From Octopus vulgaris (taxonomy: Eukaryota), in NCBI GenBank assembly GCA_951406725.2, contig OX597817.1, positions 78,740,001-78,804,000 on the forward strand: 64,000 nt of DNA. Reading direction: 5' to 3'. Shown one piece after another: positions 2,495 through 57,400 of the stretch. Below the pieces are notes generated by a model that searched no databases, was not told where the DNA came from, and saw only the letters and a program-made list of their open reading frames with translations. The translations under genes were made by a program, and so were the position numbers. Numbering within the stretch: the first letter of the stretch is position 1; each line of letters starts with the position of its first letter.

Positions 2495-3122
2495 ATTTTT
2501 TGGTTTATTCATTCTAGTGCCATTATCAGTGTGTCTTTAGAATTATTTTTTCATGGTTTGGGTGTAACTGCCCTTTTTAGCATGTAAGAAGGTCTATCAG
2601 GGGTCTTCTCTCTGTGTATAAATGTTTATACACTCTTATATAAAAAAAATATGTTGTGCCTTATGACTTTTATTATGCATATGAACCACTGGTAATAAAT
2701 TATTTAAAATTTTTACCCCCTTAATTTACACAGTAAAATTTCCTAATTCTGAGGCCATATAGTACAGTTTAAATTTATTATTTGCTGCTAGGCTATGTAA
2801 CTTTGCTTGCACACTTGATTTGAATCCATAATGTATAAATGTGGAGCTTGCACGTGTTTTCAATATATACTAAAGCTACATAATTATGCATTCTTTAGCG
2901 ATCTCACTGATGAACTTCGAATGACAAATTAATTTATTTGTTCATTAATAAGGAAACTCGAGTATGGGATTAACTAATAATCTTTTGTTTTATTCATTCT
3001 AGTTCCATTATCGGCATGCCTTTAGGATTATCTTTTCATGGTGGATTTAACTGCCCTCTTTAGTTGTAAGAAGTCCTGTCAAGGGTCTTCTTTCAGTGTA
3101 TATATCTTTATACACTCTTATA
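2495..3122 (+). mobile_element. Partial tandem repeat (~485-bp period) carrying a hammerhead motif; Penelope pLTR or retrozyme-like
   Basis: ~2495-2640 is repeated, diverged, at ~2983-3122. A hammerhead motif lies between the copies, and (TA)n flanks both sides. Confidence 0.7.
2901..2970 (+). ncRNA. Type I hammerhead ribozyme motif, slightly degenerate
   Basis: ATCTCA-CTGATGA-ACTT...AAG-GAAAC-TCGA-GT-A-TGGGAT. Stem I is ATCTCA/TGGGAT, stem III is the palindrome ACTCGAGT, and the 10.1-11.1 pair is missing. Confidence 0.7.
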
Positions 3123-3516
3123 TACATACATACATACATACATACATACATACATACATATATATATATATATATAAAAACTGTACTGGGAGAACAAGAA
3201 GAAACGAATCGAATCGAAGCGAAGGCGCTCAGTCATACAATAATGTAATAAATAAAATATATGCATACATACATACATATATGTACGTACCTACACCTAC
3301 ATGTATATATACATGCATATATAAATATATATACGTGAGTACAGGACACCACAAATAGACGCAGAACTCAACGAGAACAAAAACGTAAAAACAAGCATGG
3401 AACGAACCTTTTTTTACAAAGAAAAAACAGAGTACTAGACAAACTATATATATATATATATATATATATATATATATATATATATGTATGTATGTATGTA
3501 TGTATGTATGTACATG

Positions 3517-3670
3517 ACAGGCATCTTTTCATATCCATCTACCAAATCCACTCACAAGGCTTTCGTCAGCCTCAGGCTATAGTAGAAGACACTTGCCCAA
3601 GTTGCCTTGCAGTGGGACTGAACCCAGATGGTTGGGAGGCTAGCTTCTTACCATATAGCCATGCCTGCAC
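3517..3670 (-). mobile_element. tRNA-derived SINE family A, 5' half
   Basis: Matches the reverse complement of the head of the full copy at 41389-41804. Confidence 0.8.
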
Positions 3671-3930
3671 CACATACCATTTCTGCACACATATCATGCC
3701 TGCATACATGCCATTTTCACACACGCACATCTGACTATGCATTATGGCCTACACATCCATACACATTACAAGTCACTCACCTATACACTTTTTACACTTT
3801 TGTTAGCCCCAAAGTTTACACCCTTGTGCGTCCTTACTCTTCTTACTTTCTTTCTCCGCTCCCTCTCATCTGATCCCAACTCATCTCACAGATACACATC
3901 TTTCACCTACATACACTTACACCCCATATG

Positions 3931-4410
3931 CATACTCACCTAAATCCTCAAGTCTGTTCTGATCCTCTGGTACACATATACACACGCGAACACACACACA
4001 AACACACACATACATACACTCACACACATGCTCACCTCAATCCTCAAGCCAGCTCTGATCTTCTGGTACACATATGCACAAGCGCACGCACACATACACA
4101 CGCACACAAACATACTCACCTCAATCCTCAAGCTAGTTCTGATCTTCTGATGCACATATACACATACACATACAAACACACACACACACTCACCTCCATC
4201 CTCAAGCCAGTTCTGATCCGCTGATACACATATACACATGCACATGCACACACACACACTCACCTCAATTCTCAAGCCAGTTCTGATCTTCTGATGCACA
4301 TATACACATGTGCATGCATGCACACATACACACACACATAGACATACACACACACACTCACCTCCATCCTCAAGTCAGTTCTGATCTGCTGATACACATA
4401 CACACATGCG
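3931..4410. repeat. Compound minisatellite: six ~45-bp cores separated by variable (CA)n
   Basis: CTCACCTCAATCCTCAAGCCAGTTCTGATCTTCTG-like cores start near 3931, 4027, 4111, 4186, 4257 and 4355. Confidence 0.9.
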
Positions 4411-4925
4411 CACGCACACACACACATACAGGGTTCTTCTTTGATAGTATTTTCTTTGTCTTATTCCCTCTGTCCTCTACAGCTGACCACTTGCTTGCAC
4501 TATAAAATCACACAAACACACACACACGCACACACACACACACACACACACACAACCCATGCTCACATGCATTTACACTTCATTTCTTCACCCAAATCCA
4601 TCCCCTTCTTCTTACCTATCCCTTAAAAATATCACTACCAATGTCTTTTATTCTACTGTACCTCGATAGACTTTGCCATAACCTCAGATCAGTCCAAAGT
4701 TTGTAAGTGAATTTGTGGCAGGTCTTCAGATGTTGTACCTCTTCTTGATGGGTAGACTTAACATGTGGCCCACTTAACCCTTTTAAAACCAGCATTCTTG
4801 AGATTATGCAACAAATATTTTATAATCTCTGCAATATAAAGAAAGCAGAAAATTGAGAAGTACTGATGAACAACAATTGACTTACATCAATTATTATTTA
4901 TTAATTCAATGCAAATAGGCTGCAT

Positions 4926-5052
4926 CCCATCTAACGGCTGTTTCTGCTTCAAATGTTGCATGGTATTACCATTGATATGCAAAAATATGAAAAAATATTA
5001 ATTATATTTGGTAATAAAACCGATCAGAAATGAGGAGCTTCCTCAGAGTGAA
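4926..5052 (-). ncRNA. Degenerate type I hammerhead motif with long stem II
   Basis: Minus strand reads CACT-CTGAGGA-AGCTCC...TATTACCA...TGGTAATA...GAAGCA-GAAAC-AGCC-GT-T-AGATGGG. Stems I and II are imperfect. Confidence 0.5.
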
Positions 5053-55323: not shown

Positions 55324-55510
55324 TTAACCCTTTAACATTTGGATTACTCTATCAGTTGTAATGCTTATTCATTCACATTGTTTTGAATTAATCAAGAATT
55401 ATCTCATAGCTTTGAAATTTCGATCATGAAATTGTTTATGATTTGAATACCATTGCTTGAACATAAAGTAGAAAGAACGTTTTGAGTCAGTTATGACAGG
55501 TTCAAATAAC
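55324..55510. mobile_element. Possible piggyBac-type MITE remnant
   Basis: Begins TTAA|CCCTTT. A similar end, AAAGGG|TTAA, occurs at ~5905-5914. No partner TIR is clear. Confidence 0.35.
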
Positions 55511-55634
55511 TATTTAATGTATCCTCACATCTCCCACTCTACTGCTTCTACATCTTGCTCAACATTCACCCACCTTCTAGTCTGTCCTTGAGTCCCATGA
55601 GGTCACCTCTATCCTTGCTCATCACTCACTAGAG

Positions 55635-55961
55635 TAAAGACCCACTTTGGTCATGAATGACTGGGATTGCACCTAGAAAGTTCTCCTCTGAGGAACAAGT
55701 CCGGGCAAGGTTGTTTATGGAAGACCAGTAGTCACCCATACATACCAGCCTCTCCTCTCCACACCACCGATGTTATCCAAGGGAAAGGCAAGGGCTGATA
55801 CAATTTGACACCAGTGACATTGCAACACATTTTTACAGCTGAGTGAACTGGAGTAATATGAAATAAAGTGTCTTGCTCAAGAACCCAACACACAGCCTGG
55901 TCTGGGAATTGAACTCACTACCTCGTGATTGTGAGCCTGATGCTCTAACCACTAAGCCATG
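55635..55961 (-). mobile_element. SINE family C, head interrupted by an insertion
   Basis: Reverse complement of 42569-42877. Confidence 0.82.
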
Positions 55962-56141
55962 ATAGATCGCTACCCACTGAATCTTTTTCTATTTTCTCTC
56001 CCTGTTTATTTCTGTGTTCCTTTCTGTCAAAGAGCGTAGGCTCAAAACGTAAAAGACTTTCTCACTTCCCGACCGTTAAACTAATACATCTGTTTATTGT
56101 TTACATACCCATCTTTGTCTTTTGTTTTTTTTGTAAATTCT
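55962..56141 (+). mobile_element. 180-bp insert with minimal hammerhead-like motif and 12-bp TSD (copy B)
   Basis: CACTAAGCCATG occurs at 55950-55961 and 56142-56153; motif at 56020-56055. Confidence 0.82.
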
Positions 56142-57234
56142 CACTAAGCCATGCATCCCCATCTCTAACTGTCTGCTAAACTCCTCTTGCCCGCTTATGA
56201 AACTAATCATCCTTTCTTTTCCTCCATCTTTGATCCACTAACTGCATCCTCTCCTATGTTCACCTTCTTGTACTTTGTGAGTTTGCTCTAGCATCTTTAT
56301 CTTCTTTTCAGCAACTACTACTCACCTTTATATAATGTGTGGTAGCTATGTTTTCCCTTCATAGCAAGACACCTACATTTGTCTCTCTTACCTTCCTGGC
56401 ATCAAACCACCTTCCCATTGCTATTTTCCCCCACCCCTACTTAATTTTGAGGATTTCTTTTTCTATTTTGCTACTTACTTAGCAGTCCCACCAGTACCAC
56501 TGGCATGGGAAAAGTACCCAGTACACACTGTAAGGTGATTGGGCATTAGGAAGGGCATCCTGTCATAGAATCATACCAAAGCTTACACTAGAGCCCGGTA
56601 CAACTCTCTGGCTTGTCATGAATGAAAAAATAGACATTAAATGATGAAGATGATGATGATGTAATTTGTATACAAATGAGTTTTGTGTATTAAAAACCAC
56701 AGGGCTCCCTCAGAATACTAGTGGACTGCCAAACATCATGTTTCAAAATAATTTGATCCTTTCAGTGACAAATACCCCTGGACATTTGGAACTTAGTCAA
56801 AAATTACTTGTTCTGATGTAGAAACTGGTAGACAAAACATTTACTGAATAGTGTGAAAGTGAACCAGGCAAGAATTAAATTGATATGCACACTTGAAATG
56901 GAATCAGATTAAAATACCCGTGTGAATCATGAATTGATATTGAATATATATCTGTAAATTTTTGGTTTTCTTATTCTTTTATTCTTTTATATGTTTCAGT
57001 CCAATGACTGTGGCCATGCTGGAGCACCACCATTAAAAGAAAAAAAGCTTTAAAAAAAACCTCTTCAAAGAGTTTTTTGTATAGCACAAGGTCATCTTTG
57101 ATCATGCAGGGTTTTCAATTCTATCCCACTGCATGACACCTTGGACAAGTTTCTTCTTTTTATTATAACCATGGGCCAACCAACGTGTATGTGTGTGTGT
57201 GTGTATGTGTGAGTGTGTGTGCGTATGTGTGTGT

Positions 57235-57400
57235 GTAGTTCAGATTTACAGAAAAACAAGACGAAGACAGGTGTAGGAACAAGAAGCAGCTGTATTAATT
57301 TAACACTCAGGAAAAATGGAAAAGTCTTTTACATTTTGAGCCTATGCTCTTCAACAGAAAGGAGTAAGAGGCAAAAATAGAGAGAGAATGAAAAGCAAAT
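57235..57400 (-). mobile_element. Same minimal-hammerhead repeat family (copy C)
   Basis: Minus strand CTTTCTGTTGAAGAGCATAGGCTCAAAATGTAAAAG at 57326-57361, plus a homologous downstream body. Confidence 0.7.

Follow-up and report, generated by a model that had tools for sequence, protein, structure and literature searches.

Hammerhead-type motifs of Penelope-like retroelements in a 64-kb stretch of the Octopus vulgaris genome, with two variant cores

A 64,000-nucleotide (nt) stretch of the Octopus vulgaris genome (assembly GCA_951406725.2, contig OX597817.1, positions 78,740,001 to 78,804,000; referred to here as the window) had been proposed, from its letters alone, to hold about ten hammerhead ribozyme motifs belonging to several unrelated repeat families. 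Are these motifs genuine, which elements carry them, and would they cut RNA? We consider it probable that seven families of Penelope-like elements (PLEs) and of derivatives without open reading frames (ORFs) carry them as type I hammerheads in their 3' terminal repeats, with dimer cutting predicted for intact copies and most of the window copies decayed.

Ten motifs in seven dispersed repeat families

By direct inspection of the window, a hammerhead-like motif was present at each of the ten positions given by the original prediction (Table 1). Each site was searched across the genome, and the best 20 to 30 loci per family were aligned. The sites sorted into seven dispersed repeat families (A to G), which bears out the claim of several families, and the window copies were 85 to 98% identical to their best relatives. 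Strict CTGANGA occurred at five of the ten sites (2907, 5046, 8579, 36888, and 37426), while every core letter was canonical at four (B, C, G, and the first E copy). Two further cores, CTGTTGA and CTGATGC, had been treated as near variants; they proved to be fixed family states, and it is this that sets them apart. Judged against the family majorities, the lesions of the window copies were mostly private decay, and most of these copies are likely dead.

In all seven families the majority sequence was of type I topology, its core flanked by stems I and II. Families B, C, D, E, and G had the core CUGANGA ... GAAA ... UH in their majority sequence, together with a palindromic or near-palindromic stem III; CUGANGA was not the core of families A and F. 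The proportions of loci passing the descriptor without a core mismatch were 22/25 (D), 16/25 (E), 8/20 (G), 7/25 (F), 6/25 (B), 6/25 (C), and 0/30 (A). The palindromes named in the original prediction, ACTCGAGT (B), ACATATGT (D), and ACGT (A), were all present, the last being intact in the window only at 56020. As RNA, stem III is ACGU in A, ACUCGAGU in B, ACAUAUGU in D, and ACAGCUGU in G. Family E alternates between two palindromes (ACUGAUCRGU and ACUAAUUAGU), that of family C has one central mismatch, and AGAACU in family F is not palindromic. The G10.1-C11.1 pair was present in A, D, and F, replaced by U.U or G.U in E, and mixed in B; it needs the extra-A register in C, and an A.A adjoins the core in G. 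A U.U at 10.1-11.1 is described as tolerated (PMC3088659).

A long, branched stem II had also been proposed. Its length held (39 to 95 nt in B, C, D, E, and G), but branching was predicted for just one copy of family G; the inserts of the window copies were predicted to be irregular long hairpins (z, -0.95 to -3.1). Four relatives of family D (L033, L042, L154, and L247) differ in their stem II bases, which still pair, and include three variants of the stem III palindrome; they provide natural covariation for motifs with a long stem II.

The window is AT-rich and microsatellite-rich, and the motifs could in principle be chance matches in a repeat-rich genome of 2.8 Gb. A descriptor that allowed mismatches (score of ≥25) returned five matches in the window, compared with a mean of 0.4 (maximum, 2) in 30 block shuffles. 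Four of the five were predicted sites, and one was a microsatellite false positive. The remaining six sites were singly nonsignificant, which together with that false positive speaks for chance, and are supported by the family alignments. A stricter first descriptor recovered one of the ten sites. Rfam reported no hammerhead in the window at the gathering threshold, and none was present among the 150 matches listed of 651 weak ones. We scanned samples of 40 and 60 evenly spaced 10-kb stretches (400 kb and 600 kb) with slightly different settings. In the shuffled-control comparison, which had been suggested with the original prediction, the 40 stretches contained 10 core-intact matches (score of ≥25) versus none in each of 12 shuffles. 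Furthermore, reversed-pattern controls gave 0 matches against thousands, and the family alignments restored canonical cores and palindromes. We regard the probability of the chance explanation as negligible.

The 60 stretches yielded 16 core-intact and 27 total matches (i.e., approximately 45 per Mb), corresponding by extrapolation from 600 kb to approximately 75,000 intact-core motifs genome-wide. A genome-wide RF00163 search had 263,217 candidates; of the 73 that were scored, six matched, which is a lower bound. From 395 loci we obtained 328 matches in 70 clusters, 21 of which had two or more members, with at least 12 different stem III palindromes among the 70. The large and diverse population that had been proposed is real and is missed by Rfam, but the class is already published (see below), and the window itself is not enriched (four descriptor matches in 64 kb versus approximately 45 per Mb elsewhere).

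Some further sites concern the same motif. The start of the predicted span (2495) was considered as an eleventh motif and rejected; it belongs to the partial repeat on the upstream side of element B. A CTGACGA at 3569 (minus strand) lies inside a very abundant short repeat and is not a hammerhead. Outside the window, another multicopy family has a C4 core (CCGANGA) in five of six copies (L057, L035, and L304 in a cluster of six and L254 in a cluster of two). Four of its copies came from the unbiased sample, and its stem III is ACAGCUGU.

Structure of the carrier elements

The copies of all seven families shared a fixed 3' end approximately 130 to 350 nt past the core and a variable 5' truncation, and six families (B, C, D, E, F, and G) had inverted upstream copies. 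Same-strand matches to PLE proteins were detected upstream of the motif in 17/25 loci of D, 5/25 of F, and 4/30 of A (one of them weak and of low complexity). The upstream frame of family D was GIY-YIG-like, including that of the window copy. Elements of the Hydra clade lack CCHH and have CxxC and CxH around a conserved E and N; the family D endonuclease contained CxxC and CxH, with CCHH incomplete by eye. Pfam gave no GIY-YIG match for this family, and its reverse transcriptase (RT) was not recovered.

When loci were picked by the endonuclease of family A, 24 of 25 carried the motif downstream, and this GIY-YIG endonuclease had 11,505 candidates in the genome. Full-length copies consisted of an ORF of approximately 930 amino acids (aa) between two pseudo-long terminal repeats (pLTRs), with CUGUUGA in both; two pLTRs were found in 5 of 20 long loci. 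Sampled protein pairs were 83 to 99.8% identical, and there were 860 relatives of A, the top-listed ones carrying PF00078 and some PF01541. In family F, pairs of copies enclosed near-intact frames of 570 to 650 aa with RT and GIY-YIG (RVT_1, E value of 2e-4; GIY-YIG, E value of 2e-3; both below the Pfam cutoffs), and in tandem copies the motif stood just before the ORF start. The translations of A and F contained a CX4CxxC linker and a CCHH endonuclease, in keeping with the CX2-5CxxC and CCHH described for Neptune/Nematis (Craig et al. 2021, PMC8557442). Family A, a young autonomous element, is classed by these protein motifs as probably of the Neptune/Nematis type.

Families B and E consisted of ORF-less units, with a period of 450 to 490 nt in 13/25 B loci and 530 to 540 nt in 7/25 E loci; a direct second motif was found in 3/20 B and 3/24 E loci, partly one locus counted twice. 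They resemble non-LTR retrozymes as described by Cervera and De la Pena 2020 (PMC7229834) and by Li et al. 2026 (preprint; 10.64898/2026.07.22.740005) in that their ORF-less units (approximately 480 and 540 nt) bear a type I hammerhead and occur as monomers and as partial or full tandems. Unlike retrozymes, they showed no long multimers in 25 loci each, and their ends and inversions were like those of PLE insertions. Li et al. derive non-LTR retrozymes from PLE repeats.

Two results weigh against a PLE origin of every family: no convincing same-strand ORF was found within 1.3 to 1.5 kb of C (25 loci) or G (20 loci), and a PLE RT remnant lay upstream of family B in just 1 of 25 loci. Taken together, the family evidence nevertheless agrees with the original assignment to type I hammerheads of PLEs and retrozyme-like units. 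Endonuclease remnants near two E loci (L154 and L169) were considered as E's own and rejected, as they belong to other families with their own hammerheads. At another locus (L231), a tandem array with a 560-nt period adjoins a family A copy.

In intact canonical elements, two motifs in a tandem RNA would pair via the palindromic stem III and would cut this RNA after NUH; the reaction would be slow and might be assisted. By analogy with published work, the canonical families likely cleave as dimers.

Fixed U6 and C9 cores

The family A motif reads CUUU CUGUNGA A GAGC GUAG GCUC GAAAC GU H AAAG, with U at core position 6 (U6). The pattern of the wider A clan had 24,712 exact matches in the genome and none in the reversed control. 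Among the first 100 clan matches listed (one end of C1), 79 were U6, 18 were A6, and 3 were C6. The U6 matches among them carried U (32), A (23), C (15), or G (9) at N7, and 14 of the 18 A6 matches had a different 3-nt loop. Applied to all 24,712 matches, the first-100 share suggests approximately 19,500 exact U6 copies. Within family A itself, U6 was present in 96 of the first 100 listed of 2,545 matches, in 111 of 112 copies used for a tree, and in both pLTRs of the youngest intact elements. The non-U6 copies with a GUAG loop numbered 602 (first 100 listed: C, 71; A, 19; G, 10) and fit scattered, transition-rich point mutation across all subfamilies; this spectrum led us to reject an A6 revertant subfamily within family A. 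The A6 sister families have homologous pLTR flanks and a compensated outer stem I pair (C-G, G-C, or A-U), and at one A6 sister locus the endonuclease is 56% identical to that of A. For these reasons, U6 is taken as derived. In metagenome contigs, the U6 motif had no matches.

Hammerhead chemistry leaves N7 and position 17 free. In a tree of 112 family A copies built from flanks only, none of 30 core/stem sites and none of 4 loop sites changed on internal branches, while 24 of 63 downstream flank sites did (Fisher P value of 2e-5 versus core/stem). Both free sites (N7 and H17) changed, seven times in total. In two such trees, N7 accounted for four or five changes, covering all four bases, and position 17 for one to three, between A and U. 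The first tree was built after 6 of 116 copies were dropped as divergent; for the second, copies were re-collected by their downstream flank, and of 173, we dropped 24 truncated copies, 11 divergent copies, and 26 that had been picked for being non-U6. In 18 sequences of the A clan, stem pairs were intact at a rate of 98.6%.

A DNA-level signal, such as an internal promoter of the pLTR, or mere youth of the block might also account for this invariance, with a dead ribozyme and the freedom of N7 and H17 a coincidence. Penelope pLTRs are described as holding promoters (PMC6765202), and the loop and stems of family A are invariant in sequence rather than covarying. Against this, the two variable sites of 36 are exactly N7 and H17, for which the chance is 1 in 630 (1 in 42 if the loop sites are counted as free), and the flanks changed at 24/63 and 17/21 sites over the same branches. 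We consider this explanation improbable. It is quite probable that RNA structure is what selection keeps in family A, and U6 is a well-supported core variant under hammerhead-like constraint whose catalysis is a prediction.

Does the U6 motif cut? In the mechanism that we propose, a hammerhead-type RNA fold would still be under selection in the active master elements of family A and would act as a weak, protein-assisted ribozyme, the monomer being held shut by pairing of U6 with A15.1. That the motif cleaves measurably is a tentative proposition. The fuller version, in which CUGUNGA is a working natural core that kept catalysis through the change from A6 to U and in which U6 locks the monomer until a dimer or the element's protein opens it, seems to us rather unlikely.

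Several observations weigh against the proposed mechanism or against activity. Within the A clan, covariation was absent from stem II and limited to one pair in stem I, the loop is frozen as well and catalysis alone does not explain this, and most A loci had been fetched by motif similarity, a bias against core changes. In folding predictions, U6 paired with A15.1 and shut the monomer of each of the four N7 subfamilies; an A6 copy was not closed in this way. In U6 and A6 copies alike, the double-hammerhead pairing was predicted to be of lower stability than a pair of monomers or other dimers. Moreover, family A 5' ends were not in excess at the cut site (11 loci versus 12 at a control TA-microhomology site; C1 to C9); a first pattern (15/3,301) had missed (TA)n flanks and was replaced. 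Canonical family D likewise had at most 2 starts at the cut site versus 156, none of them clear, so the 5'-end test does not separate active from dead motifs; the result agrees with uncut RNA as the template. In a mutational scan, single mutants of the CUGA turn are reported as all of low activity (PMC9901934), and a natural A6C hammerhead as slow in Mg2+ and rescued by Mn2+ (PMC3088659; PMC7151607). From these data, weak activity of U6 is predicted.

The same evidence admits a motif that no longer cuts, kept as a closed, rod-like hairpin that serves as a binding site for the element's protein. U4-G5-U6 would pair with A15.1-C15.2-G16.2, with tandem G.A pairs below stem II. This structure was the predicted minimum of each of the four N7 subfamilies but not of the A6 copy; it places no demand on N7 or position 17 and accounts for the frozen G8, A9, G12, and A13. 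An anole Penelope hammerhead is reported to have cleaved only with its own protein, and its ribozyme-dead mutants still primed insertion in vitro (PMC11167929); Naiads are described as thriving without canonical hammerheads (PMC8557442). However, C3, A14, U16.1, and the extra A are not required by the hairpin yet are unchanged (four sites; chance of approximately 0.15 at the flank rate, a weak argument), and the internal-branch states of position 17 are confined to A and U, in line with what cleavage needs (two states sampled). We hold this explanation to be a serious possibility, if somewhat short of probable. The closed U6 monomer may thus be read either as the off-state of a ribozyme or as a new noncatalytic hairpin.

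Family F shows a second fixed variant, C at core position 9 (C9). The family pattern had 3,180 exact matches, and C9 occurred in 96 of the first 100 listed; canonical A9 relatives numbered 1,283. In an older sister of F, position 9 is A and stem III is a wobble palindrome. In the tree, which was poorly resolved, A9 and C9 copies alternate among those of intermediate age, and every one of the youngest, nearly identical copies carries C9 and a nonpalindromic stem III. With both lesions (C9 and the missing palindrome), the lineage active most recently seems to have lost or weakened its ribozyme; judged from these sequences, this likely happened without stopping transposition.

Table 1. Hammerhead motifs and associated element features of the window
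Feature	Position	Strand	Description
Family B insertion	2484..3132	+	Partial tandem of ORF-less ~480-nt unit; upstream partial repeat 2495-2620, then hammerhead-bearing unit
Family B hammerhead	2900..2971	+	CUGAUGA, extra A, 39-nt stem II region, stem III ACUCGAGU, GUA, 7-bp stem I; canonical core
Family G hammerhead	4926..5053	-	CUGAGGA, 95-nt stem II region, stem III ACAGCCGU (family ACAGCUGU), GUU; weak stems
Family C hammerhead	8565..8673	+	CUGAUGA (family CUGACGA), 62-nt stem II region, family stem III ACAAUUUGU, GUA
Family D hammerhead	35575..35660	-	Family core canonical, here U at position 3; stem III ACAUAUGU, GUC
Broken GIY-YIG-like endonuclease remnant	35922..36334	-	Possibly Hydra-like by motif; ~270 nt upstream of hammerhead D, same strand
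Family E insertion	36557..37602	-	Two direct ~540-nt ORF-less units and inverted upstream piece 37494-37602
Family E hammerhead 1	36819..36893	-	CUGAUGA, U.U at 10.1-11.1, stem III ACUGAUUGGU, GUA; core letters canonical
Family E hammerhead 2	37357..37431	-	GUAA replaces GAAA; core broken
Family A minimal hammerhead	37714..37749	+	U6 core CUGUUGA; G16.2 decayed to A
Family F hammerhead	40823..40868	-	C9 (CUGAUGC), extra G, nonpalindromic AGAACU; first stem I pair broken here
Inverted 5'-truncated family F pLTR piece	40902..41029	+	Includes first 26 ORF codons (40952-41029)
Family A minimal hammerhead	56020..56055	+	U6/C7 subfamily; G8 and G12 decayed to A
Family A minimal hammerhead	57326..57361	-	U6/U7; G12 and C15.2 decayed

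The window also contained an old relative of the family F pLTR end and ORF start (61301-61397, plus strand; 70% DNA identity and 50% protein identity over 24 aa), with no recognizable hammerhead beside it. At 37766-37845, a family A copy had a short inverted duplication of its own 3' tail; many family A copies contain a comparable 35-nt inverted self-match. Among 143 of 192 window frames searched with Pfam, the domains above or near the cutoff were those of DNA transposons only. These were broken remnants of Tc1/mariner transposases (24518-25402, minus; 11819-12139, plus; 31963-32211, minus; DDE_3, HTH_Tnp_Tc3_2, and Transposase_1) and of a pogo/Tigger-like transposase (10389-11156, plus; CENP-B_N and DDE_1). 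Other repeats were a tandem array of 70- to 98-nt units with a conserved core between CA runs (3931-4424) and two very abundant short repeats, often paired in opposite orientation around a microsatellite (20105-20511, 23341-23765, 41384-41779, 44931-45526, 48176-48556, and others).

Known systems and significance

Lunse et al. (2017) reportedly deal with dimeric PLE hammerheads. In the literature and supplements searched, we found no natural U6 or C9 core and no hammerheads from the host group; Lunse et al. or Repbase/Dfam may already list the variants found here. CUGUUGA turned up once, in a paper on engineered ribozymes. The hammerhead class is known, and the U6 and C9 natural core variants were not found in print.

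Massive and diverse minimal hammerheads in the pLTRs of metazoan PLEs have already been described (Cervera and De la Pena 2014, PMC4209133). Those given there resemble the present families in being type I with a short stem I and an extra nucleotide between 9 and 10.1, in having a palindromic 15.2-16.2 or a short palindromic stem III, and in occurring as many families per genome, mostly as single truncated copies with inverted pairs. The consensus there is CUGANGAH, with U3-A8 as a core variant, whereas here U6 is fixed in A, and F combines C9 with an extra G and lacks the palindrome. At 39 to 95 nt, the stem II regions seen here exceed the helix of 7 to 8 bp given in that paper. In the account of Neptune/Nematis (PMC8557442), canonical hammerheads are universal, whereas here young, high-copy lineages are noncanonical. 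The phage Bcep176 hammerhead (PMC3088659; PMC7151607) likewise has a pyrimidine at core position 6. It is one phage sequence with C6 that cleaves slowly and prefers Mn2+, whereas U6 is present here in approximately 20,000 copies of an animal retroelement, known from sequence.

Hammerheads are nearly universal in PLEs, yet they are slow in vitro, and one reconstituted system could prime without them. The octopus genome allows the two states to be compared in nature, with canonical A6 and A9 sister lineages beside young and far more abundant U6 and C9 lineages. If U6 does not cleave, the motif would be kept for a noncatalytic job. If it does, the hammerhead core rule and genome censuses would need widening, and descriptor searches fixed on CUGANGA would miss tens of thousands of such ribozymes per genome.

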